This document shows, piece by piece, positions 2,919-59,692 of a stretch of DNA of 60,996 nucleotides. The notes beneath the pieces were generated by a model. That model made no database searches, was not told the DNA's origin, and saw only the letters and a list, made by a program, of their open reading frames with translations. The position numbers and the translations under genes were made by a program. The number at the start of each line of letters is the position of its first letter. The first letter of the stretch is position 1. Location of the stretch: the IMG/VR virus record IMGVR_UViG_2788500553_000001, positions 1 through 60,996 of that record, one strand, 5' to 3'. This DNA comes from a virus.

Positions 2919-2920
2919 CG

Positions 2921-5948: not shown

Positions 5949-5966
5949 AACCGGGGTAACAGGCCG

Positions 5967-6455: not shown

Positions 6456-7113
6456 CTCCCGACAGCGCCGTCAGAATCGACGCCGCCGTTTCCTCGCCGA
6501 TACCGTCGACACGCTGAAGCGCCTCCCAGTCGACATCCGAGACGAACGCCGTCATCGACGGCCACCGCTCGGCCAACGCCGCCGCCGTTTTCGGGCCGAC
6601 GCCGGGGAGACACGCGTACATCTGCGTCGTCACATCGGCGTCTCTGCCGGTGATGTCCGGGGAGGGCACGTACGACCGGCTCGGGTCCTCGACGTGCTTA
6701 CGCGCCAATCTCACGCCGAGATCGACGAGTAATTCGGTCGAGGAACACGGGATCACCGCCTCGATCCCGTTTTCCCGCGCCGTCGTCGACGCGATATGCC
6801 CGCGAACCGACGCCGGCGACATCCCCGACTGCCATAACTGCTCGGACTCGACGAGGTCGCCGTCGATCAGGATGTACGCCGTCTCGAACGCGTCGGCGAG
6901 CTTCTCGATCTGCTCGGTAATCCGCCCGTCCTCGATTGAAGCGACGTAGTCGTCGATCGTCTTCCGCTCGACGCCGACCGTGCCGAAGACGATGTCCGCC
7001 GCGGCCAACTCCTCACGCTCGACGCCGTCGACCTCCTCGTGTTCGGCGACCAACGCCGCCACCTCGACCGGCTCGCGCGTGTCGACGACGGCCGGCACCG
7101 ACTCCTTACTCAT
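6436..7113 (-). CDS. ERCC4 (XPF/Mus81/Hef-family) nuclease with tandem HhH
   Basis: VVDTRE, ADI...VERKT..D, R..EQ motifs; HhH motifs LPGVGPKTA and VDGIGEETA. Confidence 0.88.
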   Translation of the reverse strand: MSKESVPAVVDTREPVEVAALVAEHEEVDGVEREELAAADIVFGTVGVERKTIDDYVASIEDGRITEQIEKLADAFETAYILIDGDLVESEQLWQSGMSPASVRGHIASTTARENGIEAVIPCSSTELLVDLGVRLARKHVEDPSRSYVPSPDITGRDADVTTQMYACLPGVGPKTAAALAERWPSMTAFVSDVDWEALQRVDGIGEETAASILTALSGGEDAEA

Positions 7114-7373
7114 CGCCCATCCTCCTCCGTGTACCGCCACATCCGACGCCACCGCGAGTTACCCGACCGCTCCCGCTCCTCGAACCGCGAGTCCTCCTCT
7201 AACATCCAGACGACGCGGAGTTGATTGTGCGTTATTGTCTCTTCGTCGTACAGCTTGAGGATCTCGCGGGCCGTCACGTTCGTTTTCACATCGCCGTGAT
7301 CGACGACGAACCGTTCGAGGAGACGCTCCGCATCGTCGATGGTGAGTTTTTCAGGATTCTGGTAAAATGCCAT
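7110..7373 (-). CDS. Hypothetical protein (possible winged helix)
   Basis: Start reassigned to MAFYQN; ends in WRRMWRY. Confidence 0.5.
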   Translation of the reverse strand: MAFYQNPEKLTIDDAERLLERFVVDHGDVKTNVTAREILKLYDEETITHNQLRVVWMLEEDSRFEERERSGNSRWRRMWRYTEEDGR

Positions 7374-7716
7374 GTTCGACGACCTCCAGCGTCGCGGGGA
7401 TCGTTTGCTCGCCATTGCTCCGTTCGACAGCGAGTCTGTCGATATGCCGACCGACGTACACCCGCGTCCGGGGCGTTCCTTCACGTTCGATGTGAAGCCG
7501 CTGCTCGTACGGCTTCGTCTGATACCACTCCGCCGTCGGCATCCGCAGGACGATGTTATCCCGGTCGGATGCGACCGCGATTTGAAACTCATGGCCAATG
7601 CCCTGACACGTCACGAACTGCTCTTCTGGCGTCAGATGCCGCTCGACATATCGAATCGGCAAGCGCACGAACGACCGCGACGCATCGATAACGGAGAGTT
7701 CCACGTCAGTCGGCAC
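7351..7716 (-). CDS. Hypothetical protein
   Basis: 121-aa ORF with plausible composition, overlapping both neighbours. Confidence 0.5.
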   Translation of the reverse strand: MPTDVELSVIDASRSFVRLPIRYVERHLTPEEQFVTCQGIGHEFQIAVASDRDNIVLRMPTAEWYQTKPYEQRLHIEREGTPRTRVYVGRHIDRLAVERSNGEQTIPATLEVVEHGILPES

Positions 7717-8125
7717 CGGCAGTCACCTCCGACAGTTTTTGCTGAATTGAACACTTCACTTCATTTTGGTGTTCCTTCTCAGTGTGTCGGAAGTAACTCG
7801 GATAGGGGTGATACTCACCTGTGCCTTGGTCGAACACCAACACCTCGGCTTCGAGGATCGTCTCCGGCAGCAGCGCCGCCATGAACCCCCACGCCCCGGA
7901 CACCTGAAACGGCACGATGTACCGGTCGTTGAGCAGGTCGTCGGCCTGCGCCGCCAACTGCTCTCGATCGAGTTCGTGGTTATTGAAGTTCCAAATCGTC
8001 ATCCCGGCGACGCGGCGCGGACTCAACGCCCGCCGCCTGACGAACGATACCACCTCGTCGGGCGTCGTGCCGTTCTCGACCAGCAGCGCGTCGTCGAGAT
8101 ACGGCGTCCCGAAGCTCTGACTCAT
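7706..8125 (-). CDS. Hypothetical protein
   Basis: Start reassigned to MSQSFG (8125), preceded by GGTGA and the 24-nt repeat. Confidence 0.65.
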   Translation of the reverse strand: MSQSFGTPYLDDALLVENGTTPDEVVSFVRRRALSPRRVAGMTIWNFNNHELDREQLAAQADDLLNDRYIVPFQVSGAWGFMAALLPETILEAEVLVFDQGTGEYHPYPSYFRHTEKEHQNEVKCSIQQKLSEVTAGAD

Positions 8126-8133
8126 CGTCGTTT

Positions 8134-8157
8134 CACCGGCGGTCGGTCGCCACCCAA
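8134..8157 (-). repeat. 24-nt direct repeat, copy following the 59-nt tRNA-like element
   Basis: TTGGGTGGCGACCgACCGCcGGTG; 22/24 identical to 8445-8468. Confidence 0.9.
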
Positions 8158-8215
8158 ACAACCGCGGGGAATTGAACCCCGCCACGGAGAGTAACTCCGT
8201 TACGCCAGCGGTTGC
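8157..8215 (-). ncRNA. 59-nt D-armless tRNA-like element
   Basis: Acceptor GCAACCG/CGGTTGT, linker CTGGCGTA, hairpin ACGGAG-TTACT-CTCCGT, T-arm CGGGG-TTCAATT-CCCCG, discriminator T. Confidence 0.65.
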
Positions 8216-8439
8216 TGCCCGGTTTCGAGGTCTTCTAACTCGATTCGGGCGTCGTCGTTGTCTGTCTCAAGACACGCTGCGAACAGCTCCAACGCTTCTT
8301 GGGGCGAATCACCCCGCACCGGCCTGTCAAGCTCCTCGTTTTCAACTTGCCAGCCCGTTCGCTCTTCATCGGTAATCCGATCGCGGAGCCGTACCTCTCG
8401 CAACGTCAATTCTACCTCGGTTAGCTCGGTTTTCGGCAT
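8200..8439 (-). CDS. Small acidic protein (possible HicB-like fold)
   Basis: MPKTEL...WQVENEELDRPVRGDSPQEAL; G-x-S/T-x-x-EAL resembles the HicB N-terminus; start at 8439. Confidence 0.55.
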   Translation of the reverse strand: MPKTELTEVELTLREVRLRDRITDEERTGWQVENEELDRPVRGDSPQEALELFAACLETDNDDARIELEDLETGQQPLA

Positions 8440-8444
8440 ACTGA

Positions 8445-8468
8445 CACCAGCGGTAGGTCGCCACCCAA
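8445..8468 (-). repeat. 24-nt direct repeat, copy following the 167-nt tRNA-like element
   Basis: TTGGGTGGCGACCtACCGCtGGTG. Confidence 0.9.
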
Positions 8469-8635
8469 GCGGGTGGAGGGACTCGAACCCTCGATTCAGC
8501 CGCCCCCAGTCGAACACGAGAAGCGTCGCGTCCCGGTGGCAGGATTACTCATGGCCTCGACAGCCAACTCCGGAGGAATACGCGGAGCGAATACTGGAGG
8601 ATGGGCCTCGACTGATACCTTCACAGCACACCCGC
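8468..8635 (-). ncRNA. 167-nt tRNA-like RNA with a large insert in place of the anticodon loop
   Basis: Perfect acceptor GCGGGTG/CACCCGC, T-arm GAGGG-TTCGAGT-CCCTC, helix CAGTCG/CGGCTG, variable loop AATC, D-region containing GG. Confidence 0.7.
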
Positions 8636-8654
8636 AAAAATGAGAGTTAGCGCA

Positions 8655-9002
8655 CTACGCCTGATCCGCCACGTCGTCGCGGGCATCGAGGATCGCGCCG
8701 ATGAGACTCGCCTTCGACAGCCGCATCGGGTTCTCGATGCCGAGCCGCTCCGCCTTCGACTCCAGTACGTCGACCGACTGATCGGCGAGGCGGCGACGTA
8801 CGACCATCCGGTCGAGGTCGCCCTCGTTGTCCTCACCCGCTGCCGTCGATGGAGCGGGCGCATCGCCGTCGCGCTCGATCCGCACCGTTCCGTCGTCGTA
8901 GACGACGGTGTACGCGTCGAGCGCGGTCGCGATGTAGTCGAGGTCGTCCTCGGTCGTCGCGGCCCGCGTTTCGCCGTACAGGACCGTCTCGCGCTCGCTC
9001 AT
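8655..9002 (-). CDS. Hypothetical protein with C-terminal Rho-N/SAP-like helical motif
   Basis: LADQSVDVLESKAERLGIENPMRLSKASLIGAI resembles the Rho N-terminal domain. Confidence 0.6.
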   Translation of the reverse strand: MSERETVLYGETRAATTEDDLDYIATALDAYTVVYDDGTVRIERDGDAPAPSTAAGEDNEGDLDRMVVRRRLADQSVDVLESKAERLGIENPMRLSKASLIGAILDARDDVADQA

Positions 9003-9004
9003 CG

Positions 9005-9301
9005 TCAGTTGAAGCCGATCGTCGCCGCGTCGTCGTCGAGGCTGTCCTGGCGCACCTGTTCGGCCAGTTCCTGCCCGTCGTAGCCGTCGATGTCAACGTC
9101 GGCCTTCTCACAGATCTCGATCGCCCCGGCGGCGAGCTTCGAGAAGTTCTCCGGCGTGAACACGTAGGCGTCGCCGTTGATCTCGACGTGAATCATCTCG
9201 TCGTCCGCGACGTACTCGGCGCCAAGCGCGACGACGAACGACGGGTCAGGCATTTCTGCGGCTCCACCACTCAGCATCGCCTCAAGCGGGTTTCCACTCA
9301 T
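9005..9301 (-). CDS. Hypothetical protein
   Basis: Start reassigned to MSGNPL; acidic. Confidence 0.6.
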   Translation of the reverse strand: MSGNPLEAMLSGGAAEMPDPSFVVALGAEYVADDEMIHVEINGDAYVFTPENFSKLAAGAIEICEKADVDIDGYDGQELAEQVRQDSLDDDAATIGFN

Positions 9302-9475
9302 CGTTTGAACACCGCCCTCTTGACTTCCGGCTCGCGCCTCGCTGTCCGGGCCGGACAGGCACACCCGACCGGGGTTCGGCAGGGCGTGATAACAGAGAGA
9401 TGGACGAGACACGCGCGTCTCTCGACCGCGACATCGTCGCAGGTGGAACGCGACGCGCCTCATCCGAAACCGCGT

Positions 9476-9766
9476 CTACTCGCGTCTGGGGCGGAGATAT
9501 TCGATGTGGGGATCAGGGAGCGTCATACCGTCGATATGCCAGCGAGCGTACTGCGCGCGGGCCGTCGTCGCCCCCTCAAGCCACGGTTGCTCGACTAACA
9601 GCTCAACCTCACCCTCGACCTCGCGAGTAAACACCGGCACCTCCATCGTCCAGTAGCCGAACTTGCCCGCGTACTTATTCGACGCCGTCGCCGAAAACAC
9701 GCGGAACCCGAGTCGATACTGTTCACCCGGTTCGACCTCGTCGGGGATGTCGCGCTCGTCGGACAT
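9476..9766 (-). CDS. Hypothetical protein
   Basis: 96-aa acidic ORF downstream of the vWA gene. Confidence 0.6.
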   Translation of the reverse strand: MSDERDIPDEVEPGEQYRLGFRVFSATASNKYAGKFGYWTMEVPVFTREVEGEVELLVEQPWLEGATTARAQYARWHIDGMTLPDPHIEYLRPRRE

Positions 9767-9770
9767 GGGC

Positions 9771-11609
9771 TTAAAACAGGATGTCCTTCACGAGAGACCG
9801 GGCGCCGGCCAGCGCCTCGTCGGCCGGGCGGTGTTCGAGTTTGTGGAAGTACTGACTCGCGTTGATTGACTGCTGGTCGAAGTCCTCGTCATCCTCGCGG
9901 ATGTAGATGCCGACCACGGGGAAGTCGCACATCGCCAACTGGTCGCGGTACAGCTCCCGGTGATCCGGCTTCCCGTCCGTCAGGACGATGACGAACGGAT
10001 GTCCGCCCTGCTGATCCAACCGCTCACGAGCCAGCGCGAGCGTATCCGACAGCGGCGTGCCGCCGTCGGCCCGGCCGTTGAACATCTTCTCCTTCGCGTC
10101 CGCGACGGACTCGGGGAAGTCCTTTTCCAACCGGGTCAGGTCATCGAACATCGACATCACCGCGGTCTCGACTTCGACCTCCTCCAACGCCATCGCCAGC
10201 GCGCCGGCGGCCTCCTCGGTCGGCGTCATGAGGCTGTTTCCGAAGTTCGACATCGACCCCGACCGGTCGACCGCGATGACCGCCGAGTAATCCTTCGCGT
10301 CGGGCTTGGACGTGTTCTGGAACACGTTGGTCTTGCCCTTCGACACGTTCTTCATCTGCGACGTGTCGACCTTGCCGGTCGACTTCTTCTTCTGTTTTTG
10401 CGACGCACGCTGCTTCTGGAGGCGCTGCTCCAGCTCGCGGGCGAGCGGCTTCTTCATCCGCTTCGCCTCCTCGAACGCGTCCTGATCGAACGTGCCGGGC
10501 GCCGACGTAACGACTTCCATCTCCGGATCGATGTCATCGTCATAGTCGGTCTGGATCACCCGGACCCACTCCTCCGCTGACTTGACCGACGCCTCGGTGC
10601 CAACCTCCTGCCGCTGCCGGTCGACCTCGTCGGAGTAGTCGATCCGGGCGTCCTGCTTGACCGGCGCCATCTCGAAACTGTCACTCAACTCGGCCGGCTC
10701 GCCGCCGTCGCCATCGTCGTCATCGTCCGGTGCGGCCGCCGGGGCTTCCTCGCCTTCCGAGCCGTCGTTCGCCGTTGTATCCGGTGAGATGGCCTCCATG
10801 TCGAACGTCGGCGTCGTCGTGTCGCCCGACTTCACGGTGCCCTTGATGTCGGCGGCGTGGTCGTCGACGAACTCCCGCAGGATCGCCGGCCGCTCCTCGG
10901 CGTCCGTCTCCGCGAGGTACGCCTCGATCGTGTCTTCCAACGCCGGGAGGATCGTATCGACGTACGTCTCTCGATCGTCGTCGGTCAGGAACTCGATGTC
11001 CGCGTCGGCCGGGTCGACGAGCTTCTCGTGCCACCCGAGCGGGTGCTTCTCCTCCCACAGCCGGTAGACGATCGCGTTCAGGATGGAAACCGTCTCCTCG
11101 TCGTTCTGCTTGAGGAGGTTCTCGTTGGTGATCCGGAACTCGTTTTCCATCCCGAACCGGTCGGCCGCCCGCGGCTCGATGAACGCGTCCTCGAACGCGT
11201 CGAACAGTTTCTTGAACAGCGCCTGATCCGGGTCATCGACGACCACCATCTCGGCCTCGACTGCGGGCCAGTCCGTCCACTTCAGGTGACCGATTTCGTG
11301 ATACAAGTCGGTCTCCTGAACCATCAGGTCCCACTCACCCTCGGGGACCGACGTTTCCGTCTGCTCCGGCACATCGGCCCGCACGTTGATGATCTTCCGG
11401 TCGGTGTATCCGAACTCGGTATCCGCGTCCGCGAGGTCAGCGTACGCCCGATCGCCGCTGACCTGAACGAACACCTCCTGATTCGTCGACATAATCGCCC
11501 GCTTCTCGAGGTGTTCGCGACGGGCCTTTGATTCGCGCAGTTTTTCTCGGCCGCCCTCACCGAAGCGGCGCTCGACCGTTTCGACCTTCGTGTTTGTATC
11601 GAGGAACAT
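9771..11609 (-). CDS. CobT-like vWA-domain protein with N-terminal metallopeptidase-like motif
   Basis: MIDAS DRSGS, GGTPL, LTDGKPD; N-terminal HEIGH...FED..IE; start reassigned to MFLDTN. Confidence 0.85.
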   Translation of the reverse strand: MFLDTNTKVETVERRFGEGGREKLRESKARREHLEKRAIMSTNQEVFVQVSGDRAYADLADADTEFGYTDRKIINVRADVPEQTETSVPEGEWDLMVQETDLYHEIGHLKWTDWPAVEAEMVVVDDPDQALFKKLFDAFEDAFIEPRAADRFGMENEFRITNENLLKQNDEETVSILNAIVYRLWEEKHPLGWHEKLVDPADADIEFLTDDDRETYVDTILPALEDTIEAYLAETDAEERPAILREFVDDHAADIKGTVKSGDTTTPTFDMEAISPDTTANDGSEGEEAPAAAPDDDDDGDGGEPAELSDSFEMAPVKQDARIDYSDEVDRQRQEVGTEASVKSAEEWVRVIQTDYDDDIDPEMEVVTSAPGTFDQDAFEEAKRMKKPLARELEQRLQKQRASQKQKKKSTGKVDTSQMKNVSKGKTNVFQNTSKPDAKDYSAVIAVDRSGSMSNFGNSLMTPTEEAAGALAMALEEVEVETAVMSMFDDLTRLEKDFPESVADAKEKMFNGRADGGTPLSDTLALARERLDQQGGHPFVIVLTDGKPDHRELYRDQLAMCDFPVVGIYIREDDEDFDQQSINASQYFHKLEHRPADEALAGARSLVKDILF

Positions 11610-11611
11610 GG

Positions 11612-12787
11612 TTACCAGTTCTGACTGCTGATGTGTTGTTTGATGTCCTGTCGATCCTCCGGGTCGGCGCGGCCGACAAGCACCATCTCGGCCGCCGCCT
11701 CGAAGCTGCCGAGGCGGTCGGCCATCCGCGCCACCTGAACCACGTCGCGGGTACTGATCCACGTCGACGTTTTGCCCATCCGTTTCAGTGACCGAATACC
11801 GGTGACGACGCCGCCATCGTCGCGCAACAGCGTGTCGATCGCCGGGTCGTCTCGATCGAACGGCGTCTCCATCTCGATGACGCGGCGCTCCGCGTCCTCC
11901 GACAGCGGCGGGAGCCGGACCGGGTAGAACCGGCTCGATGTCGCCGCGTCGAGCATCTCGCGGCCACCGTACCCGACCTCGTTGGGGTTCATCGTGGCCG
12001 CGAAGATGAACTCGTCGTGCGGCTCGATGACCTGGTTCGTCTCGGGGATGACAATCTCCGACGAGTCCGCGTCTTCGAGGATTTTGTTCAACATCGTCTG
12101 GACTTTGCCGCTGAGGGCGTTGAACTCGTCCAGAACGAACATATAGCCGTGCCGCAGCGCCGTCGTCAACAGCCCTTCCTCGTACTCGAACCCGCCGTCC
12201 TCCGTCGGCTGATACGTGCCGACGAGGAGGTCGACGAAGTCCGGATCGTCGTTCGCGACGAGCCGAACCATCGGCCGGTTCGTCCGCGCCGCGATGTGTT
12301 CGAGGAGCGCGTCCTTCCCGATGCCGTGCTTGCCGATCAACAGCGTCGAGAAGTCGTCGTCGGCGAGCGCCGCCGTCACGACATCCACGTCCGTCTTCTT
12401 GTGTAGCTCACTCTCGTCGTCCTGACTCATCCGGCGCCGGATGTAGCCGGTGTTCGCGTGCCGGGGGACCTCCGGGTGACCCGTATCCTCTAACACGGGG
12501 AGCGACCCGAACGTCTCCGTCGTCGCCGCACCGGCATCTTCGGCGACCAACTCGTCGCTGTCGCCGTCGAACGCGTCCGCGAGGTGGTCGCTCGGCACGA
12601 CCATGTCGTCGGCGCCGGCGCGCTTCTCCTTCTCCGCGACCATGCTGTCGGCGACGTACTGCTTCGCCGTCGACTCCGCGATGTCGATCTCGGCGACCAA
12701 CTCGTCGACCGCACGATCGTACGGGACTTCGCCGTCGTTTTCGTGGAGTAACCGCTTCAACTGGGCCTCGGATTTCTGGGTTGCCAT
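11612..12787 (-). CDS. MoxR/CbbQ/CobS-like AAA+ ATPase
   Basis: Walker A GKHGIGKD, Walker B VLDEFN, FAATMNP, LDAATSSRF. Confidence 0.88.
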   Translation of the reverse strand: MATQKSEAQLKRLLHENDGEVPYDRAVDELVAEIDIAESTAKQYVADSMVAEKEKRAGADDMVVPSDHLADAFDGDSDELVAEDAGAATTETFGSLPVLEDTGHPEVPRHANTGYIRRRMSQDDESELHKKTDVDVVTAALADDDFSTLLIGKHGIGKDALLEHIAARTNRPMVRLVANDDPDFVDLLVGTYQPTEDGGFEYEEGLLTTALRHGYMFVLDEFNALSGKVQTMLNKILEDADSSEIVIPETNQVIEPHDEFIFAATMNPNEVGYGGREMLDAATSSRFYPVRLPPLSEDAERRVIEMETPFDRDDPAIDTLLRDDGGVVTGIRSLKRMGKTSTWISTRDVVQVARMADRLGSFEAAAEMVLVGRADPEDRQDIKQHISSQNW

Positions 12788-37459: not shown

Positions 37460-38749
37460 ATGAGTGCCGCCACGGCAAATCGACAGCCCCTCACGCCAGC
37501 TCCGGCGTTCGAGACGCACGAGAAACAGCAAGAACTCGTGGCGTCGCCCGAGCGGTTCCGTGTTGCCTCGTGGGGCCGCCGGGCAGGCAAGAACATCTCG
37601 GCGGTAATCGACCTCGTCGAGCACGTTCGGTATCCGTGGCGGTTTGAGTGGGGGACCGACGATCCTGATGACTACCTCATCTGGTGGCTCGGCCCGTCGT
37701 ACGACCAAGCGAATAAGTACGGGTTCCAGACGTTCATCGCTGCGATCCCCGACTCATGGATCGACGATGTCAACCGGACAAAGCCGTACGTCGTTGTGCT
37801 GTCGAACGGCGTTACAGTCGAGTTCCGGACGTACGACCGCCCCGACTCGCTTCAGGGCGCCGGCGTCGACCACATGATCGTCGACGAGGCATACCAGATG
37901 CCCGAGGAGGTGTGGTATTCGGACCTCGACCCCATGCTCCTCGACACGCGGGGTTCGGTCCTGTTCATCTCGAAACCCAAATCCCGGTTTTTCAAGAAGC
38001 TGTATGAACGGGGAGAATCCCCGGACTTCGAGGAGTGGGCGTCGTTCCACGCGACGAGCGCAGATAACCCGTTCATCGACGAAAATCCGGAGGATAAACG
38101 GGGCGAAGTCCCCGACATGGTGTTTCGGCAGGAGTATCTCGCCGAGTTTGTCGACGACGAGGGCGATGTATTCGGGGCAATCGACGATCTCCTGTTCACG
38201 CTCGACGGGCCGCCGGACGAGCCGACCCCGCCGTTCGTTCATGGCTGGGACCTCGCCCGCCACGACGACTACACCGTCGGCGTCGTCTTGGACGCAGACG
38301 GGCGTCTTGTCGAGTTCGAGCGGATGCGGGATAAGTCGTGGCCGCAAATCGAGGACGCCATTAGAACGGCGGCACGGCGCAGAGACGGCATCGTGGCGAT
38401 GGACGCGACCCGCGATAACAAGCTCGTCGCGGACATCGGCGCCGACCACGCCGTCGAACCGATCAAGTTCACGCGGCAGACGAAAACGGACCTCGTCGAG
38501 AACCTCGCGACCCGAGTAGAGAACGGCGAGTTGTCGGCGTACGATGTGCCGCAACTCCGGCACGAGATGACGGTGTTCACGTACGAGGTGACGCCGTCGG
38601 GCAACGTCCACTACGCGGCGCCGGAGGGGTACAAAGACGACTGTGTCGACGCGCTGGCGATGGCGGCCGATCAGTTGTCGCAGGTACAGGCGATGAAGCG
38701 GCGCAAGGATAACCGCGACGACGATCGCGGTGGAGTGACCTACATATGA
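37460..38749 (+). CDS. terL: Terminase large subunit
   Basis: Walker A GRRAGKN, Walker B IVDEA, nuclease GWDLA and DDCVDALA. Confidence 0.95.
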   Translation: MSAATANRQPLTPAPAFETHEKQQELVASPERFRVASWGRRAGKNISAVIDLVEHVRYPWRFEWGTDDPDDYLIWWLGPSYDQANKYGFQTFIAAIPDSWIDDVNRTKPYVVVLSNGVTVEFRTYDRPDSLQGAGVDHMIVDEAYQMPEEVWYSDLDPMLLDTRGSVLFISKPKSRFFKKLYERGESPDFEEWASFHATSADNPFIDENPEDKRGEVPDMVFRQEYLAEFVDDEGDVFGAIDDLLFTLDGPPDEPTPPFVHGWDLARHDDYTVGVVLDADGRLVEFERMRDKSWPQIEDAIRTAARRRDGIVAMDATRDNKLVADIGADHAVEPIKFTRQTKTDLVENLATRVENGELSAYDVPQLRHEMTVFTYEVTPSGNVHYAAPEGYKDDCVDALAMAADQLSQVQAMKRRKDNRDDDRGGVTYI

Positions 38750-38975: not shown

Positions 38976-40499
38976 ATGAGCGCGAGTGACGATTCAGCCG
39001 GACAGGCAGACCTCAACGTCTACTATCCCGGCGCCGACGGAACACTCGAAAAAGCCGCCGAGTCGCAGCAGCTCGACGAGCGGCACGTCGGCCGAACGAT
39101 CGGCGGCGGCATCAGTCCGCCGTATCCGCCGGCGAAGCTCGCGACGTTACAGGAGATTAACGGCACCCACGCCGTCGCGATTAAGAAGAAGTCCGTTCGC
39201 GAGGTCGGCTTCGGCTTCGACATCGTGCCTCATCCCGAGGCCGAGGATCCGAGCGAGGACGAGAAAGAGGTCCTACAGGAGTTCTGGCACGGTCGGGAAT
39301 CGATTTGGAAAACCGGGCCGCAGGGCACGCCCGCTTCGACGCCGACTGAGGTATTCGAGGTGAGCCGGCGTGACTGGCACGGCGTTGGCTGGCAGGCGAT
39401 CGAGGTGATGTATTCGGCCGACGATCAGCCGGTCGGCCTCGCGGCGGTGCCTGCCGAGGAGATTCGGGTTCGGAAAGGCAGTTCCTCTCCCGTTTCGGTC
39501 GGCCACGGCTACGTTCAGGAAGATGACGGCCTTACGGTGTATTACGGCGAGGCCGGGGATCGGGGGCAGCGCGTTCAAATGGAGTCTGACGAATCCCCCA
39601 CGTACGTCGATCGGAAGACGGGCGAGACGGCGGAGGATCCGAACGACCTGAAAAACGAGCCCGCCAACGAACTCCTGTTTATCCCGAACCAGCACCCGTT
39701 AACGAAGTACTACGGCATCCCTGATTGGGTCGCGGAGGTCGAGACCATGATGGCCGACCAGTCGGCCAAGGAGTTCAACCGTCGGTTTTTCGATTACGAC
39801 GCGATGCCGCAGTACGCGGTTATCGTTGAGGACGGCCGGCTGACGGAGCAGTCTCGTAAGAGCCTCCGTGAGTTGGTGGATCGGCTTCGGAAAAGCGAGG
39901 ATCGTCGCATGGTCGTTCTTGAGGCGGAGGAACTCGCCGACTACGACATCGACACGGCAGACGGTGGGACGCCGAAAATCCGCATCGAACCGCTTAGTTC
40001 GCAGGGAGAGGAGGATATGGCGTTTACCGAGTTCCGCCGGATGAACGAGCATGACATAGCGAAGGTTCACGAGGTGCCGCACGTCCTGATCAACCGGTTG
40101 GAGTCATCCAATAAGGCCAACTCGCGCCAGCAAATCCGCGATTTCACCGAGGAAGTCATTAAGCCTCAACAGAAGCGGTTTGCGGAGCGTATCTACCGTG
40201 TCATCCACCAAGAGGTTCTTGGCGTCGACGACTGGACAATCGAGTTCCATACAAAAGGGACGGATCAACTCACCGAAGCGGAGTTAGCACAGACCCGGAT
40301 CGCGGCGTCCAACGGGTCGATGTACGTCAACGAAGCCCGTGAGGAACTCGGCCTCGAACCGAAAGACGAGTTGGAGGGCCTGTTGCTCGCAGAGTTAAAC
40401 AATCCGAAAATCGGCGATGGGGCGCCGACCAACGCCCCGGTTCAACAGCCGCCGGCCGGAGAGGGCGGTAACGGCTCCTCGTCTCCGTTCGGAGAATGA
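38976..40499 (+). CDS. Portal protein
   Basis: 507 aa after terL; YYGIPDW, NRRFF, FTEFRR.NEHDIAKVHEVP, YVNEAREELGLEP. Confidence 0.9.
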   Translation: MSASDDSAGQADLNVYYPGADGTLEKAAESQQLDERHVGRTIGGGISPPYPPAKLATLQEINGTHAVAIKKKSVREVGFGFDIVPHPEAEDPSEDEKEVLQEFWHGRESIWKTGPQGTPASTPTEVFEVSRRDWHGVGWQAIEVMYSADDQPVGLAAVPAEEIRVRKGSSSPVSVGHGYVQEDDGLTVYYGEAGDRGQRVQMESDESPTYVDRKTGETAEDPNDLKNEPANELLFIPNQHPLTKYYGIPDWVAEVETMMADQSAKEFNRRFFDYDAMPQYAVIVEDGRLTEQSRKSLRELVDRLRKSEDRRMVVLEAEELADYDIDTADGGTPKIRIEPLSSQGEEDMAFTEFRRMNEHDIAKVHEVPHVLINRLESSNKANSRQQIRDFTEEVIKPQQKRFAERIYRVIHQEVLGVDDWTIEFHTKGTDQLTEAELAQTRIAASNGSMYVNEAREELGLEPKDELEGLLLAELNNPKIGDGAPTNAPVQQPPAGEGGNGSSSPFGE

Positions 40500-41320
40500 T
40501 CAAACGCTCGTCGACGGGCAAGCCGGTCGTCGTTCATAAAGTCGAGGACGCGCCGGAAGTGGAGTCGGTGATGCGGTCGTTCCGTCGGCAACTCCGCGAC
40601 GTGTTCGACGACCTCCGTTCAGAGATCGAGCAGACGGTGCGAGACGCCGTTGCTGACCCGGAGGGTGACTGGCAGGCGGTAGTCGACAAACTCGCCAGAG
40701 CCTACCGAGACGCGATTCTCTCGACGTTTCTCTCCGGCATCGGCGATGGCCTTACGGCCGGGCGACGGGCGACGGCCCGGCGCTACGGCATGGCGATCGA
40801 CTTCGACATCACTCCAGAGTCGGCGATCGAGAACGTCGACGAGTATGTTGAGAGAGTCACCGACGAAGTCATCGACACGATCGGCGGTCGCCTCGGGCCG
40901 CGGCTCCGTGATTGGTTCGAGAACGGACTAAGTTATGACGAGGTCGCCGAGCGCATCCAGCAGGAGTCTCGCGACGTGCTTGGCGAGTACGCGCTCGAAC
41001 GCCACGCCCGGACTCTCGTTCATGGCGCAGCGGAGCGCGGCAATCAGTCGGCAATCGAGGATAGTTCGGCGATCGGCAAAGAGTGGATCGCGACAGACGA
41101 CAACCGGACGCGGCTTACACATCGACGCGCCGACGGTCAAATCGTGCCGGTCGAAGGCCAGTTCGATGTCGGTCAAACGGACCTGTTTCATCCCGGCGAT
41201 CCGACGGGGCCGCCCGGAGAAATCGTGAATTGTCGCTGTACCTGTGTTCCCGTATTTGAAAGCGATTTGACCGAAGAACAGGCGCGACGGCTCAAACGGG
41301 GCGAGCGGCTGTACCTCTAA
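40496..41320 (+). CDS. MuF / SPP1 gp7-like head morphogenesis protein
   Basis: KEWIATDDNRTR.TH...DGQ, PGD...GEIVNCRC. Confidence 0.9.
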   Translation: MIKRSSTGKPVVVHKVEDAPEVESVMRSFRRQLRDVFDDLRSEIEQTVRDAVADPEGDWQAVVDKLARAYRDAILSTFLSGIGDGLTAGRRATARRYGMAIDFDITPESAIENVDEYVERVTDEVIDTIGGRLGPRLRDWFENGLSYDEVAERIQQESRDVLGEYALERHARTLVHGAAERGNQSAIEDSSAIGKEWIATDDNRTRLTHRRADGQIVPVEGQFDVGQTDLFHPGDPTGPPGEIVNCRCTCVPVFESDLTEEQARRLKRGERLYL

Positions 41321-46016: not shown

Positions 46017-47333
46017 ATGAGTGTGCCGGAGTCCGTATGGAAAGCGCGGAGCGCTGTCAAACAGCAGTCCCTCATCGATGCCGCGTCGAGCCGTGAGGAG
46101 TTGATCGAGGCGATTCCCGTCTGGCCGGACTCACTTGACCGCATCACGGAGGCGTGGCTGAACCGATGGGCCGAGTGGGTCGCGGCGGGGCGGCCGCTTG
46201 TCGAGAGTTACGATGGCGCCGAAGTCGAAAAGTTCGATCCGGCACTCCACCCGCGCGACCCCGAGACGGGGCAGTTCGTCGAGCGGCCGTTCGATGTGCC
46301 GAGTGATGCCCCGGACTTCGGCGGGATGTCGACGAAGGAGACGCTGACGTACCTCGACGAAAACGATGCCAACGTCTCGGCGGTGTTCGATCCGGAGTCA
46401 GAGGTAACCGTCGACGGGGTGCCGAACCGCGCGACGAGTATCGACGACGTGCCGGACGATCCGGAGGAGGCGAATCCGGAGCCGGTCGGTGATACGGCGC
46501 CCGATGACGCGCACTTTACTCGCGACGATCACGAAGAGTGGGAGTCGACGACGCTCGACGACATCACAAGCCGGCAGTCGATATACGACGCCGACGACGC
46601 GTCTACGGGCGTGACGGCCACGTCGATGGAAGTTGTCGAGTTGGAGGATGGAACGACCGGCTTCGTTACGCACTACGGAGACGACGCCGATCTGCCGGCA
46701 GACGCGGATGCCGTCGACGGGGCCGACCCCCGAACGGCCGACCGGCAGATGATCGCGTATGAGGGCAGTCGGCGCATCGGTGCCGAGTTAGACGACGAGT
46801 TGGCGGCGTTCATCGGAAATACGGTGCCGCCGCACACCCACATCGACGGCGACGGCTCCCACGAGGCGGTCATCGGCGAAGAGTTCGACGGCGATCGCGT
46901 GTGGGGCGCCGCCGGCCAGTCGGTCGACGAAGCGATGGCGATCGACGCCGCCGCGGTTCAGATGATCGTCGGAAACAACGACGCTCACGGCGATAACGTG
47001 ATGGTCGACGACGACGGCAACCTCGGGTTCATCGACATCGATCACTCGGCCGGACGGCTATCGAACGAGGATCCCGGCACCGGTTCGGGGAATAACGCCG
47101 ATCGCGCTCTTAATCGCGCCGCGAAGTCGTTAGAGGTCGTTACATCGCTAAGTCACAGCGAGTTGGAGCGGGACATCCTGAATCGGAGTCGGGCGTTGGC
47201 TCGTGAGTTGGATACGGAGGCGTTCAAGTCGGAGTTACGCGAGGAACTGTCGGCGTGGGACGATGAGTTGGTCGAGAACGTCGTCGTGAATATTGAGGAG
47301 CTTGCGGACCCAAACATGACGGTGACACGATAA
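46017..47333 (+). CDS. HPRD-domain protein with C-terminal PI3K/PI4K/HipA-like kinase domain
   Basis: N-terminus paralogous to part of 41616..46010; GNNDAHGDN catalytic loop and FIDIDH. Confidence 0.7.
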   Translation: MSVPESVWKARSAVKQQSLIDAASSREELIEAIPVWPDSLDRITEAWLNRWAEWVAAGRPLVESYDGAEVEKFDPALHPRDPETGQFVERPFDVPSDAPDFGGMSTKETLTYLDENDANVSAVFDPESEVTVDGVPNRATSIDDVPDDPEEANPEPVGDTAPDDAHFTRDDHEEWESTTLDDITSRQSIYDADDASTGVTATSMEVVELEDGTTGFVTHYGDDADLPADADAVDGADPRTADRQMIAYEGSRRIGAELDDELAAFIGNTVPPHTHIDGDGSHEAVIGEEFDGDRVWGAAGQSVDEAMAIDAAAVQMIVGNNDAHGDNVMVDDDGNLGFIDIDHSAGRLSNEDPGTGSGNNADRALNRAAKSLEVVTSLSHSELERDILNRSRALARELDTEAFKSELREELSAWDDELVENVVVNIEELADPNMTVTR

Positions 47334-47560
47334 TGCTGCTCATCAAACACCGAACGGACGGCGGCGAGTACGAGCCGACTGCGGTGTACGTCGACGGCGA
47401 GTTGCGTGGCGAGTCGGCGTTCGTCGACGCGATGGCGTTCATGGAAGGCGACGACGAAGACGCGGTCGCGGAGTCGTTGGCGGACGGATACACGAAGGTC
47501 GTGTCGCATCCGGACGGCGAACCGCTCCCGAGTGAGTGGCGTTCAGTTATCGTCGAGTGA
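47333..47560 (+). CDS. Small acidic protein coupled to the kinase gene
   Basis: TAATG overlap with the kinase stop; 75 aa. Confidence 0.65.
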   Translation: MLLIKHRTDGGEYEPTAVYVDGELRGESAFVDAMAFMEGDDEDAVAESLADGYTKVVSHPDGEPLPSEWRSVIVE

Positions 47561-47603: not shown

Positions 47604-48536
47604 ATGGATGCCGAGGACCTAGAAAAGCCGTTTACAGGGCCAGACGGACAGGAGTTCGATGATTTCGGCAGTTGTGTAATGACGCTGACGGAAGACGGCG
47701 ACATGAGCCGCGACGAAGCCGAGCAGATGTGCGGCTCGTGGATGGAAGGCAAGTCCGCCGATGACGCCGGTAATGCGGCCGAGGACACGGACAAGGGCGA
47801 CGACATGGATGGCGACGATGATGAGAGCCCGTATTACGACAACTGGATCGAACGCCTCGATGAGGGCGAGGATCCGTGTTGGGACGGGTATGAAATGGTC
47901 GGCCTGAAGCCGAACGGAAACCCGCGGTGTGTGCCGGTCGACGAGAAGGAGTCGGCCGTCGCGGAAAAGGTCGGGCAGACGCTGTCGAAGGAGAACGTTC
48001 GGCGGGCGAAGGCCACGCACGACATGGCCGAGAAGATGTTGAAAGCGCAGGGTGTGAGTTGCCATAAAGGCGACTCGCGGATGTACGACGAAGACAAGAG
48101 CGACGATTTCTCGCTCGGTGATGTCGCGAAGGCGATGACCGGAGTACCGGATAGCGCGTCAACTGACGCTGCGGATGTGTTCAAACAAATGGACGGAGAC
48201 GCACCTGAGTGGGCCACCGGCCTGCTCGACGACGTGGAACAGATCAGCAAGAGCATGGACGAGATCGAGGACCGCGTCGATGCGGTCGAGGCGGAAGTCG
48301 AAAAGGCCGACGCCGGCGACGGTGAGGAAACGCCGGAGTGGGCTGACGGCCTAACGGAGAAGGTCGAGTCGCTCCGCGAGGACGTGGAGGCGCTCGATGA
48401 CCGTGTCGATCGCGTGTCGAAGGCGACTGCCGGCACGCAGCAGGTCGGCGGTTCCGAGGAGTCGGGCGGCGAGGACGGCGACGATGAGCTGTCGGAGACG
48501 GAGAAGGCCAAGCGAAAGCTGTTCCTCGGCGCGTAA
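47604..48536 (+). CDS. Capsid scaffolding protein (putative)
   Basis: Immediately upstream of the capsid gene; acidic coiled coil; N-terminal Cys-containing motifs. Confidence 0.75.
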   Translation: MDAEDLEKPFTGPDGQEFDDFGSCVMTLTEDGDMSRDEAEQMCGSWMEGKSADDAGNAAEDTDKGDDMDGDDDESPYYDNWIERLDEGEDPCWDGYEMVGLKPNGNPRCVPVDEKESAVAEKVGQTLSKENVRRAKATHDMAEKMLKAQGVSCHKGDSRMYDEDKSDDFSLGDVAKAMTGVPDSASTDAADVFKQMDGDAPEWATGLLDDVEQISKSMDEIEDRVDAVEAEVEKADAGDGEETPEWADGLTEKVESLREDVEALDDRVDRVSKATAGTQQVGGSEESGGEDGDDELSETEKAKRKLFLGA

Positions 48537-48578: not shown

Positions 48579-49529
48579 ATGAGCGACGTGTCTCGTAGCG
48601 ACGCACGGAGTATCGACAAGCAGATCGACCTCGACGGCGAACTCGCCGGCGGCGTCCTGCCCGAGGACCTTTTCGATGAGTTCTACGAACTCGTTCAGAA
48701 CGAGTCCGTACTCCTCGACGAGGTCCGGACGGTGGACCTCCCTCGGCCGCAGATGAAGATCCCGCGGATCGGCGTCGGCGAGCGGATGATCCGCGAATCC
48801 GGCGAGCGGGTCGACAACTCGGAGACGGAAGACGTGACGACTGACACGGTGCCGATGTCGGTCACCAAGATCGACCTCAAGTGGTCGCTGCCGCAGGAGG
48901 CGGTCGAGGACACGATCGACGACGTGCCGGACATCGTCATGGAGCAGATGAGCCAGCAGTTCGCGGTCGACACCGAGGAGCTGGCCCTGAAGGGCGACGA
49001 GGCGGAGTCTGACCCGTTTATCGGCATCGAGGACGGGTGGTTCACTCTCGCGTCGGCTCGCGGGGCGCCCACCTACTCGCTGGCGGACTCGAACGGTAAC
49101 CCCCAGCCGGTCAGCCCGGAGAAGCTCAACGAGGCGATGCGGGCGCTGGAGCCGAAGTACCTGCGTGACGAGCCGGCTTTCCTCGTGAACACCCATCACG
49201 TTAACCAGTACTTCGGTGAACTGGTCGACCGCGAGGACGGCCTCGGCGTGGCAGTCATCCGCGGTGAGGAGGAACACAATCCGTTCGGTCACGACATCAT
49301 CGCCTCCCCGGTCTTCCCGCTCGATAAGGCGATGTTCACGACGACGGATAATCTCATCTACGGGCTCCACCGCGACGTGGAAGTCGACGTGCTCGACGAG
49401 TCCGACGAGGTCTTCGACAAGGACCTCTTCGCCAAGTACGCGATCCGCGCTCGCCTCGACTTCCAGATCGAGGACGAGAACGCGGCACTCGTGATGACCG
49501 ACATCGAGGACCCGACGATCAACGCCTAA
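48579..49529 (+). CDS. Major capsid protein (HK97 fold)
   Basis: 316 aa; GGVLPEDLFDEF...Q.ES.LL, ALEPKY, NLIYGLHRD, R.DFQIED. Confidence 0.9.
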   Translation: MSDVSRSDARSIDKQIDLDGELAGGVLPEDLFDEFYELVQNESVLLDEVRTVDLPRPQMKIPRIGVGERMIRESGERVDNSETEDVTTDTVPMSVTKIDLKWSLPQEAVEDTIDDVPDIVMEQMSQQFAVDTEELALKGDEAESDPFIGIEDGWFTLASARGAPTYSLADSNGNPQPVSPEKLNEAMRALEPKYLRDEPAFLVNTHHVNQYFGELVDREDGLGVAVIRGEEEHNPFGHDIIASPVFPLDKAMFTTTDNLIYGLHRDVEVDVLDESDEVFDKDLFAKYAIRARLDFQIEDENAALVMTDIEDPTINA

Positions 49530-57324: not shown

Positions 57325-57780
57325 ATGAGCGAATCAGCGCCGTCGGCAGAGGTGTCAGCCGTCACGACGTTGCCGCCGCCCGTGTCGGTCACGCCGCAGT
57401 ACCAGCCGGACGCGGGTGAGGTGGTCGTCACATGGACGCTTGCCGACGACGCGCCCGACGGGAGTATCGGGGTCGAGCGGTCCGACGATGGCGGTGCGAC
57501 GTGGACGACAGTCGCGACGGGCCTCGCACTCGCTGACACGGAGTTCGTCGATACGTCGATCTCGCCGGGCGACCCGATTTACTACCGCATCGTGCGGTCG
57601 ACAGCCCACGCGACCACGCGGAGCGACCCCGCGGAGCTGCTCGGGCCGGCGGTTGAGGTAGCGATCCAGTCGACGAACAGCCCGGTCGAGGCGGGCGAAC
57701 CGCTCGAGATCCCGGTCGAGGTCACGAACCTCGGCGGCGCAGGCACAGAGACGCTGACGCTCGAGATCACCGAACAGTAA
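57325..57780 (+). CDS. Fn3/Ig-like tail protein
   Basis: VVTW...VERS.D...F.DT...YYRI Fn3 pattern, then an Ig-like C-terminus. Confidence 0.75.
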   Translation: MSESAPSAEVSAVTTLPPPVSVTPQYQPDAGEVVVTWTLADDAPDGSIGVERSDDGGATWTTVATGLALADTEFVDTSISPGDPIYYRIVRSTAHATTRSDPAELLGPAVEVAIQSTNSPVEAGEPLEIPVEVTNLGGAGTETLTLEITEQ

Positions 57781-57790
57781 CCACCCATAC

Positions 57791-59692
57791 ATGACACTCA
57801 TCGATGACTTCGAAGAAGACGGCCTGTCGACCAAATCACCGTATTGGAGCGACTGGAACTCCTCGGATGTTTCTCATGTTCAGACGAATAATTTAGAGGG
57901 GTCGCAGGCTGGAGAGATTAGTGAATTTGGTTCGGCCTTCGCTCAGACGTTTAGAGACTCAGGTGGGTATCAGCCAGACACGTTCTCATTCTTAGTGCGG
58001 TTGTTTGAGTATGATATAGATGTTTATCTGAAAGAGGAAGGAACGGGTGCCCCTGAATTAGCGCAACTCCGAATCGGAGAAAGCGGTTTAAAGCTTCAGT
58101 CTACCGGCTTTTCGACGGTGACACCAAGTCTCTCATATGAAACGACATATGAAATCAAACTCACAAATATTGATTGGCAATCAGAAACGTACGACCTTCG
58201 GGTGAGGCGAATTTCCGACGATGCTGTCATATATGGACCAACTTCTCAGAATTTCTATAATAGCCCTAACGAACTTACAGAGGTTGGTCTTGGTGCTGGT
58301 GGCGGTAAGGTCCAATTTGATTACTTCAACGCTATCGAATATGTCGACGGATCGCCCTCGTCACTCGCTGTTTCGTCGACGACAGAGTCGACTGTCGATC
58401 TGACGTGGAGTGACGACGTGGCGAACGAGGACGGCTATCGCGTCTATCGCGATACCTCAGCTGGCGTCAATCGAACACAAGCGAACGAAGTTGCGGACCT
58501 CTCGGCGAATACGGAATCATACACCGATACTGGCCTCACCGACAGCACAGAGTATCATTACGTCATCGAGGCGTACACCGTCGATGACACGGCAACGACA
58601 GCGGAGGCATCCGCGACGACCATTCCCGCTGCGCCGAGCGGGACGGGCCTCGATACGTCCACTCGTGGAGAGGTCACTGTCTCGTGGACCGACAACTCGC
58701 AAAACGAAGACGGCTACCGCATGTACCGCTCGCAGTCCGATAGCGGTTATACGCAGGTGGCCGACCTCGGGGCGAACACCACTTCGTACACGGATACTGG
58801 CCTCGAAGACGGTGAGGAGTACTGGTACTACGTCGAGGCGTACGTGGGGTCAAAGACGGCAAGCGGGGCGTCCGTGTCGGCGGTTACGCCACTCCCGAGC
58901 GCGTCGTCGCTCGCGGCCGTCGAGAGTGCCCAGGATGAAGCGACGGCCTCGTGGTCGAACGAGGATAACTCATCGGACGGCTCGATCGCCGTCGAGCGGT
59001 CGACGGACGGGTTTAGCTCGGTGACGACCGTCGCGAGCGGCCTGTCGCCGTCGACGACGAGCTACGTTGATACCACGGTCGAGGGGACCGAGACCTACGC
59101 GTACCGGATCGAGCGCTCGACGGACCACGCGACCGCGACGAGCGGGACGGCCAGCGTCACGATCAACGGCCCGCCGTGGTTCACCGCCGACGCCGAGCAG
59201 CCCGCCAACGGCGCGACGGGTGTGTCGCGAAGTCCAACGCTCGCCGTCGAGGTGAACGATCCCGACGGCAACCCCGTCGACGTGACGTTCTACGACGCGA
59301 GCGACGACACGCAGATCGGGCAAACCCAGACCGACGTGCCGAGCGGCAGCTCGACGAGCGTCGAGTGGAGTGGGCTCGGGTTCGCGACGGTGTGCGAGTG
59401 GTACGCCGTCGCCGACGACGGGCTCGAAACGACGACCTCGCCGACGTTCTCGTTCACGACTGCCGACGGGGTGCCACAGAACGTTGCCGTGTCGGCGACC
59501 GCCGAGAACGAGCTGACCGTCGAGTGGGATCCCGTCGACGTTGCGGCGGGCTACTACGTGTATCGGGCCGAGTCGTCGGGCTCGACGGCGAGTGACTACA
59601 CGCAGGTCGCTGACGTGGCGAGTCCGCCGTTCGTGGATACCGATGTCGTGGACGGCGAGCGATACTACTACCGCGTTAGTTCACACGACTGA
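57791..59692 (+). CDS. Multi-Fn3 tail fibre / receptor-binding protein
   Basis: At least four Fn3 repeats (LTWSD..ANEDGYRVYR...YTDTGL...Y.Y.IEAY). Confidence 0.85.
   Translation: MTLIDDFEEDGLSTKSPYWSDWNSSDVSHVQTNNLEGSQAGEISEFGSAFAQTFRDSGGYQPDTFSFLVRLFEYDIDVYLKEEGTGAPELAQLRIGESGLKLQSTGFSTVTPSLSYETTYEIKLTNIDWQSETYDLRVRRISDDAVIYGPTSQNFYNSPNELTEVGLGAGGGKVQFDYFNAIEYVDGSPSSLAVSSTTESTVDLTWSDDVANEDGYRVYRDTSAGVNRTQANEVADLSANTESYTDTGLTDSTEYHYVIEAYTVDDTATTAEASATTIPAAPSGTGLDTSTRGEVTVSWTDNSQNEDGYRMYRSQSDSGYTQVADLGANTTSYTDTGLEDGEEYWYYVEAYVGSKTASGASVSAVTPLPSASSLAAVESAQDEATASWSNEDNSSDGSIAVERSTDGFSSVTTVASGLSPSTTSYVDTTVEGTETYAYRIERSTDHATATSGTASVTINGPPWFTADAEQPANGATGVSRSPTLAVEVNDPDGNPVDVTFYDASDDTQIGQTQTDVPSGSSTSVEWSGLGFATVCEWYAVADDGLETTTSPTFSFTTADGVPQNVAVSATAENELTVEWDPVDVAAGYYVYRAESSGSTASDYTQVADVASPPFVDTDVVDGERYYYRVSSHD

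Follow-up and report, generated by a model that had tools for sequence, protein, structure and literature searches.

We have analyzed a stretch of 60,996 nucleotides (nt), the IMG/VR provirus record IMGVR_UViG_2788500553_000001 (positions 1 to 60,996, called the window below), whose plus strand contains the head module of a tailed virus. One of the genes in this module codes for P0001, a protein of 438 amino acids (aa) with two parts: an N-terminal module, which is shared with another head protein, and a C-terminal domain with a predicted kinase-like fold. The interpretation that we favor, held with middling confidence, is that P0001 is a virion-packaged, modular kinase cargo protein of a haloarchaeal tailed provirus. 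It draws on the fold of the C-terminal domain, its invariant catalytic residues, the position of the gene among head genes, the shared N-terminal module, and the shuffling of the kinase domain with ADP-ribosyltransferase (ART)-like and MuF modules in other viruses. The virion-cargo effector protein is a known kind of protein. What is new is a kinase family similar to PI4KII, uncatalogued until now in archaeal viruses: The locus points to such a family on modular halovirus head proteins, beside an ART-like module. An earlier note on this DNA had suggested that the kinase and the small open reading frame (ORF) which follows it, P0002, form an effector and its immunity protein. As discussed below, we read P0002 in a different way.

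No family model in Pfam (no hit at E ≤ 1), PHROG, NCBIfam or PADLOC matches P0001, and a word-indexed protein search with the kinase domain only returns the domain itself. Relatives were found by an exhaustive phmmer search with residues 160–438 against 1.84 billion representative sequences: 50 proteins have E ≤ 1e-3, 14 of them with E ≤ 1e-10. When the Pfam model PF00454 is used, the result is negative for P0001, and just one of the 50 relatives (P0015) passes, with 29.5 bits (the cutoff is 27.1), in a second kinase-like region. The structure is more informative. An AlphaFold2 model of the C-terminal 279 residues, made with a homologue alignment, has a predicted local distance difference test score (pLDDT) of 91.3 and a predicted template modeling score of 0.91. 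Both lobes of a kinase are seen in it: The N-lobe is rich in beta strands and has one regulatory helix, and the C-lobe is helical.

The model was compared with PDB cluster representatives by means of VIA-align. The best match among solved structures is PI4KII-alpha (Z 14.4, 225 of 279 residues aligned, root mean square deviation 4.0), followed by Fam20 (11.9), actin-fragmin kinase (11.8), CtkA (11.5), Rio2 (11.3), ATM (10.9), and MavQ (10.5). The first 50 rows are all kinases, and 168 cluster representatives have Z ≥ 8. VPS34, PI4KIII-beta, ATM, and SMG1 score between 9.8 and 10.9, with VPS34 at about 10.5, while HipA (9.4–9.8) and CotH (9.4) are found below PI4KII-alpha. Foldseek also gives kinases at probability 1.0, with VPS34 in first place (E 5e-5). 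Structural alignment of the Foldseek hits gives Z 12.5 for Fam20C and about 10.7 for LepB and VPS34. According to the model, the C-terminal domain of P0001 has a protein-kinase-like fold of the atypical kind seen in PI3/4K-like enzymes, and it resembles PI4KII more closely than HipA. The earlier note had named PI3K, PI4K, HipA, and CotH as look-alikes, a sound list: All of them match structurally. The range given in it starts at 46520, which corresponds approximately to residue 169, where the kinase domain begins. The ORF itself starts at 46017, and this ATG is backed by the alignment with a paralogue, which begins at residue 17.

The active site lies in the motif IVGNNDAHGDNVMVDDDGNLGFIDIDH, residues 317–343 of P0001. 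The D-x-H-x-x-N loop which had been noticed in it is not a chance resemblance, as shown by the kinase-like fold and by the residues conserved in the 50 homologues: D322, H324, N327, and D340 are invariant, D342 is found in 49 of them, and G319 and N320 in 47 each. Members of the family share only 20–40% identity, so that the invariance of the active site argues for a working catalytic center. P0001 reads G-N-N-D-A-H-G-D-N...I-D-I-D, with the same spacing as the G-x-x-D-R-H-x-x-N...D-F-G signature of the PI3K/PI4K group. Two differences are found: F-G is changed to I-D, and the arginine in the catalytic loop is replaced by alanine in P0001 (D322-A-H324), a replacement already reported in the earlier note, and by leucine in relatives.

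The N-terminal part of P0001 links it to the protease polyprotein P0003. Residues 17–157 are 58% identical over 141 aa to residues 262–396 of P0003 (E 5e-47), which come directly after its protease domain. This domain (aa 9–117) corresponds to Pfam Peptidase_S78_2 (E 3e-11), and PHROG protease families also match. The shared module precedes the kinase domain in two other members of the family, P0009, which is 41% identical to P0001 over nearly the full length of the latter, and P0029. It is partially present in P0007 and in gp13 of the virus HHTV-1. A short conserved motif within the module, FDPALHPRDPETGQFVERP, recurs in P0003 (aa 315–333), P0009, and P0029, and this HPR-type motif is also found in P0007 and HHTV-1 gp13. 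The motif variants HPR[DSG]P.TGQF[VI]ER and RW.NT.TGEYRYQ..KPG, the second of which is possibly related to the HPR type, are present in the carrier part of 11 of 61 proteins, when 0.25 would be expected from shuffled sequences. The carriers include P0001, P0003, P0008, P0022, P0024, P0040, P0057, and P0058.

The other end of P0003 is different. Its residues 942–1368 have homologues in other large proteins, described below. Within this region R1302 (in YRG), S1316 (in SWS), and E1358/E1360 (in EEEV), encoded between 45516 and 45695, are invariant in seven sequences with about 30% identity. To judge from its sequence, this R-S-ExE pattern is a typical ADP-ribosyltransferase-like signature. The region has no sequence match in Pfam or PDB. 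We also considered that it might be a MuF domain, a possibility which was rejected: There is no similarity to the MuF-matching proteins at the level of hidden Markov models (HMMs), and a profile search of PDB gave spurious capsid matches only.

A second case, found in an independent metagenomic virus, L004, has a similar arrangement. Its kinase protein (2265–3527, aa 3–155) and the neighbor downstream (3524–4714, aa 44–199) share an N-terminal module which is not the one of P0001. The identity is 57% over 169 aa, and the module holds the elements EWV.DPS...W.NTETGEYRYQ and GTKT.R.RIRRRLRGLG. This is a recurring pattern: Neighboring genes of the head module have a common front part and different enzymes at the end.

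The following mechanism may be suggested. P0001 would be made late in infection and packed into the head. The shared module would direct both P0001 and P0003 into the assembling capsid, where the prohead protease might release their enzymatic ends. The kinase would then be ejected with the DNA into the next host and phosphorylate a host target early in infection. P0002 would be a part of the carrier or assembly apparatus.

The kinase family is composed of at least 50 clusters at 50% identity. In the 50 homologues, which are 214–1611 aa long, the kinase domain usually forms the C-terminal part, and the carriers or effectors to which it is attached make up at least six different contexts. Fusions include the ART-like region of P0003 (in P0020 and P0049), HhH (P0006 and P0009), and a CCA-adding enzyme (P0010). 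Structural neighbors of the kinase model in BFVD include giant phage proteins fused to portal, ADP-ribosyltransferase, Nudix, and 2H domains. Two of the metagenomic members deserve a description. P0010 (883 aa) combines a CCA-adding enzyme of the bacterial type (PolyA_pol head, RNA-binding and HD domains, aa 139–561) with the kinase domain (aa 609–857). In P0015 (712 aa), kinase-like catalytic motifs are found twice, at aa 263 and at aa 606. The region of the first one is the one that passes the gathering score of Pfam PI3_PI4_kinase (29.5 bits), and it has a weak match to the model of RisK1, a PI3-kinase effector of a type IV secretion system.

Among cultured viruses, a clear member of the family is found only in HHTV-1. 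Its gp13 (1100 aa) is annotated as "hypothetical protein", and residues 512–735 correspond to the family kinase (HMM E 1e-32; Foldseek E 5e-10, TMq 0.62). The gene lies between the terminase and MuF genes, and the HPR-type motif is found near aa 114–155. A tblastn search of 50,697 phage records gave HHTV-1 only, and two other family members used as queries added nothing useful. A megablast comparison of 9 kb of the window with phage records gave no match. A distant structural relative is gp16 of HSTV-2 (UniProt L7TJZ0), annotated as "PI3K/PI4K catalytic domain-containing protein", whose gene is located between the capsid and tail-sheath genes. It reaches 25.5 bits with PF00454, under the 27.1 cutoff. 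Genomic context comes from three independent lineages besides the window: L004, L005/L006, and L007. One metagenome scan gave three loci, and scans of viral and genome contig collections gave no relatives. The gene order in L005 is TerL, portal, kinase protein, and a protein with a P0002-like domain. In the window, the order of the genes from terminase to capsid, as shown in Table 1, bears out the suggestion of the earlier note that the kinase belongs to the head module.

Table 1. Location of the genes, domains, and motifs discussed in the text; positions are those of the window.
Feature	Position	Strand	Description
Large terminase (TerL)	37460–38749	+	Head module
Portal	38976–40499	+	Head module
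MuF-family minor head protein	40496–41320	+	Separate gene; Pfam Phage_Mu_F, E 4.6e-10
P0003	41616–46010	+	Polyprotein of 1464 aa: XkdF-type prohead protease, shared module, acidic repeats, C-terminal R..S..ExE region
Copy of the shared module in P0003	42399–42803 (aa 262–396)	+	Paralogous to the module of P0001; directly after the protease domain
P0001	46017–47333	+	Two-part head-module protein of 438 aa: N-terminal shared module, C-terminal atypical kinase domain
Shared module of P0001	46065–46487 (aa 17–157)	+	Candidate capsid-incorporation module; 58% identity to P0003
Short conserved motif	46233–46289 (aa 73–91 of P0001)	+	Within the shared module
Kinase domain of P0001	46521–47330 (aa ~169–438)	+	Protein-kinase-like, PI4KII/Fam20-like, according to the AlphaFold2 model, VIA-align, Foldseek, and homologues
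Catalytic loop and metal-binding motif	46965–47045	+	D322-A-H324-G-D-N327 and I-D340-I-D342; residue conservation in 50 homologues
CCCAAAC	47309–47315	+	Formally a -1 slippery heptamer (X XXY YYZ), in frame with P0001; it lies 16 nt ahead of the stop, and the -1 frame continues open as far as P0002
P0002	47333–47560	+	ORF of 75 aa; free-standing copy of a ~65 aa N-terminal domain of head-module proteins
Coiled-coil scaffold-like protein	47604–48536	+	Between P0002 and the capsid gene
HK97-type capsid protein	48579–49529	+	After the scaffold-like gene

The position of P0001 might also suggest a morphogenetic role: The targets of the kinase would be head proteins of the virus itself (scaffold, portal, protease polyprotein, or capsid), on which it would act inside the producing cell to time assembly or maturation, and it would not be delivered to a new host. 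In fact, the gene lies between those for the protease and the scaffold in a late operon, P0001 shares a module with the protease polyprotein, and the distant relative in HSTV-2 is found among head-tail connector genes. On the other hand, the kinase domain has been shuffled onto many unrelated carriers, together with ART-like, CCA-adding enzyme, and HhH modules, as expected for accessory effectors, and most isolated haloarchaeal tailed viruses do not have it, with HHTV-1 as the only find in the tblastn search. One would expect a wider distribution of an enzyme essential for assembly, so this restricted occurrence counts against such a role. We consider a morphogenetic kinase improbable.

The cargo reading has to account for P0002 as well. 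Its ATG and the TAA stop of P0001 have one base in common, where the sequence reads CGATAATGCTG, so the TAATG overlap described in the earlier note is correct. Overlaps of 1–4 nt between start and stop are frequent in this genome, for example between portal and MuF (40496–40499) and in a pair which meets at 55881. Since they are so common, the overlap of P0001 and P0002 alone is no mark of a special gene pair. The same may be said of composition. P0002 is indeed acidic (24% aspartate plus glutamate, isoelectric point 4.15), but this is of no use as a clue: Every protein tested in the window is acidic (19–29%, isoelectric point 4.05–4.9), and acidity was rejected as the mark of an immunity protein.

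No match for P0002 is found in Pfam, PHROGs, NCBIfam, or PADLOC. A word-indexed search among proteins of similar length only returned P0002 itself, its profile has zero matches in PDB, and ESM Atlas was uninformative. Its relatives are longer. In L004, L005/L006, and L007, the gene which comes directly after that of the kinase codes for a protein whose first ~65 aa are 35–38% identical to P0002, and in all cases the alignment begins at Met1. A profile search of a 5.8-billion-sequence database, limited to longer proteins, gave ten proteins of 301–790 aa which start with this domain (E 1e-15 to 3e-29). To judge from these relatives, P0002 is a real coding domain. Nine of the long proteins were scanned, and in five of them the part close to the C-terminus matches MuF, slightly below the Pfam cutoff (E 3e-6 to 5e-4). 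Those of ~760 aa carry an ART-like region homologous to aa 942–1368 of P0003. With a richer HMM, the domain is also recognized at the start of P0024, which bears a kinase (E 1.3e-5). Thus the domain heads proteins with three kinds of cargo: MuF-like, ART-like, and kinase. In L004, what comes after the domain is the module with which the kinase protein of that virus opens. The MuF protein of the window does not have the domain.

The whole genomes of HHTV-1 and HSTV-2 contain no P0002-like domain. Small ORFs which overlap the stop of the kinase gene are found in both: gp14 of HHTV-1 (95 aa, 9599–9886) and gp17 of HSTV-2 (76 aa, 12109–12339). They were examined as remote homologues of P0002 and rejected, with hhalign E of 0.24 and 0.15, respectively. 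Because its homologues head large proteins with three kinds of cargo, HHTV-1 and HSTV-2 do without the domain, and acidity is proteome-wide, P0002 is best read, at the level of sequence, as a detached carrier or assembly domain of neighboring head proteins and not as a dedicated immunity protein. The pair proposed in the earlier note is therefore supported in its kinase half, but not in its immunity half. It had also been proposed that the small protein shields the lysogen: No promoter of its own is evident for P0002, so this is unlikely. A small downstream ORF should not be called an immunity gene on position alone.

Nevertheless, P0002 might be a partner of the kinase in another sense: Its domain would bind the kinase domain and inhibit, cap, or chaperone the kinase in the producing cell, much as HipS does with HipT or as immunity ORFs do behind MuF toxins. 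Several features agree with this. In the window and in L004, L005/L006, and L007, the P0002-like domain starts within 1–4 nt of the stop of the kinase gene, and motifs similar to a Shine-Dalgarno sequence, GGAGGT(G), are found inside the 3' end of the kinase gene in L004 and L005. The kinase and P0002 domains are conserved across lineages (34–38% identity each), while the neighboring modules are swapped. In the window, P0002 is an intact ORF with all the invariant residues, although the rest of the downstream protein is absent. We should also note that MuF toxins often have small ORFs downstream (PMC5576092). Other features disagree. The homologues are N-terminal domains of large proteins, some of them MuF-only proteins of ~300 aa, and not free small proteins, and the arrangement in L004, where the domain precedes the module found at the start of the kinase protein, resembles a carrier architecture. 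As for co-occurrence, which the earlier note had listed as a check, a P0002-like domain directly follows the kinase in all three independent lineages with recovered context, but HHTV-1 has the kinase and no such domain in its whole genome. The synteny of the head module can explain the adjacency by itself.

The predicted structure of P0002 does not favor a partner either. The AlphaFold2 model is weak (pLDDT 68) and gives no fold match, with a best VIA Z of 3.8 and a best Foldseek E of 0.49. Compared with residues 8–113 of HipA it reaches Z 2.9, within noise. No similarity to antitoxins, HipS, HipA-N, or helix-turn-helix (HTH) domains is found, either by sequence or by the fold of this weak model. 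On balance, a cognate partner is rather unlikely.

A different link between both genes was also considered. A -1 shift at the CCCAAAC heptamer shown in Table 1 would yield a fusion of kinase and P0002. A conserved programmed frameshift of this type was rejected, as the heptamer is absent from the junctions of L004, L005, L007, HHTV-1, and HSTV-2. It is probably a chance occurrence, for which a rough estimate gives about 3–5% in a window of 12 codons.

Returning to the reading of P0001 as kinase cargo, several points weigh against it. P0001 does not match any Pfam kinase model. The alignment with the catalytic loop and DFG of PI3K in PDB searches is below significance, both with the single sequence (E 0.6) and with the profile (E 0.06). 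The canonical lysine that anchors ATP is not conserved anywhere in the N-lobe, and the nucleotide-binding mode of the domain, or even its chemistry, could be unusual. The shared N-terminal module has no fold or family match in family libraries or ESM Atlas. Packaging and delivery rest on analogy with MuF-effector and polyvalent proteins. Gene context was recovered for only three independent lineages. In these, the conserved unit is exactly the kinase domain plus the P0002 domain, with different flanking modules, which also fits a functional partnership.

The positions of the missing residues were assigned from the alignment and the predicted secondary structure, without the use of coordinates. 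The lysine of strand beta3 would be expected, from the spacing of the Gly-rich loop, at T218, which is Thr in 37 of 50 sequences and Lys in four. At M204, in beta2, 37 of 50 sequences have Met and only 12 Lys. The C-helix carries a conserved arginine, R243 (41 of 50), where Glu is usual, and this is the sole conserved basic residue of the N-lobe. As there is no canonical lysine, both the enzymatic activity and the mode of nucleotide binding of P0001 are matters of inference.

This raises the question of whether P0001 is a protein kinase. It might instead phosphorylate lipids, small molecules, or nucleic acids, use the kinase fold for another kind of nucleotide transfer, or be a structural domain with no catalytic activity. 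Among solved structures the closest is a lipid kinase, PI4KII-alpha, the lipid kinases MavQ and LepB of Legionella are also matched, the canonical Lys/Glu pair is missing, and in P0010 the kinase domain is joined to a CCA-adding enzyme that has an HD domain. However, the scores of Fam20, actin-fragmin kinase, CtkA, and Rio, which are protein kinases, are only slightly lower. The D, H, N, and D residues which are invariant in 50 of 50 sequences speak against a dead domain. Polyvalent fusions join unrelated activities, so the fusion with a CCA-adding enzyme says little about the substrate. Phosphoinositides are not known to be major lipids of haloarchaea, which we have counted against a lipid kinase. 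Taken together, these alternatives to a protein kinase seem improbable.

Comparison with known systems helps to place P0001. The PI3K/PI4K group, represented by PI4KII-alpha (PDB 4PLA/4HND), is the best structural match and has the same D-x-H-x-x-N loop followed by a hydrophobic residue and Asp. Nevertheless, identity is about 10%, PF00454 does not match, the Arg of DRH is Ala, and the ATP-anchoring Lys is not conserved. Unlike the members of this group, P0001 is an archaeal viral protein encoded in a head module, and no sign supports a lipid substrate. HipA and HipBST also have a kinase-like fold with a D-x-H-x-x-N loop, and in HipBST a small partner, HipS, regulates the kinase. However, P0001 and P0002 have no HipA or HipS family match in Pfam or NCBIfam, and the Z of HipA (9.4–9.8) is lower than that of PI4KII-alpha (14.4). 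An HTH antitoxin of the HipB type was looked for in P0002 and its immediate neighbors, which are head-assembly genes, and no HTH family was found.

Polyvalent proteins of phages and conjugative elements contain many modules, are encoded among virion late genes, and their delivery along with the DNA has been proposed (Iyer et al. 2017, PMC5512222). As in the family of P0001, their effector domains move from carrier to carrier and are found together with ART and MuF (PMC5512222). Their kinases form a distinct clade of the Ser/Thr/Tyr type which has lost the C-terminal subdomain and is found in prophages of Verrucomicrobia/Chlamydia and Bacteroidetes (PMC5512222). P0001, in contrast, keeps a helical C-lobe similar to those of PI4KII and Fam20. 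Polyvalent proteins are reported to be scarce in archaea (PMC5512222).

Fusions of MuF with effectors are also found among virion genes, and it has been proposed that they are packed and injected (PMC5512222, PMC5576092). The MuF polymorphic toxins (Jamet et al. 2017, PMC5576092) resemble the P0001 locus: They belong to the head module, near portal and MuF, and have a variable C-terminal enzyme and a small ORF directly downstream. A kinase toxin domain is not mentioned among them in PMC5576092. Several differences should be noted, the archaeal setting of P0001 among them. P0001 has no MuF domain; MuF is a separate gene which starts at 40496. Unlike the immunity ORFs of MuF toxins, every homologue of P0002 that we have detected is the N-terminal domain of a 300–790 aa protein, sometimes with MuF. 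HHTV-1 gp13 and HSTV-2 gp16 differ from P0001 in the architecture of the carrier, and the small ORFs that overlap them have no significant similarity to P0002.

A tested precedent for delivery is T4 Alt, a virion enzyme with an N-terminal targeting element: The prohead protease system assists its packing into the head, and it is injected along with the DNA (as cited in PMC5512222). The likeness of P0001 to T4 Alt, and to internal proteins with capsid-targeting sequences, is a functional analogy, with no relation in sequence or fold, and the shared module would play the targeting role. Delivery of enzymes inside the virion is well established for a few bacterial phages, with T4 Alt as an example, and has been predicted for many others in the form of polyvalent and MuF-effector proteins. 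Our literature searches gave no paper on kinases of the PI4K-like type from archaeal viruses, they do not appear in the large survey of archaeal tailed viruses from 2021, and the papers searched contained no proteomic or biochemical data on members of the family.

A more ambitious proposal, which we regard as quite unlikely, is that haloarchaeal tailed viruses have a capsid-cargo system of their own: The P0002-type domain and the HPR/TGE modules would load swappable enzymes, namely a PI4KII-like kinase without the canonical lysine and an R-S-ExE ADP-ribosyltransferase, into the head for injection, and free-standing P0002 would serve as a cap or regulator of the kinase. If P0002 has this role, the pair would be the first effector cassette of kinase plus partner known in an archaeal virus particle. 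The Haloarcula hispanica/HHTV-1 system allows a direct test of enzyme injection by an archaeal virus and of the function of a kinase fold with no lysine.

Two other observations may be added. In L007, the pair formed by the kinase gene and the P0002-domain gene is followed by a gene (4857–9380) for a protein of more than 1500 aa, which starts with DUF192 (Pfam E 2.6e-23); the remainder is unannotated. In the tail region of the window, two adjacent ORFs (57325–57780 and 57791–59692) share 43% identity over 104 aa, between aa 2–105 of the first and aa 354–456 of the second.

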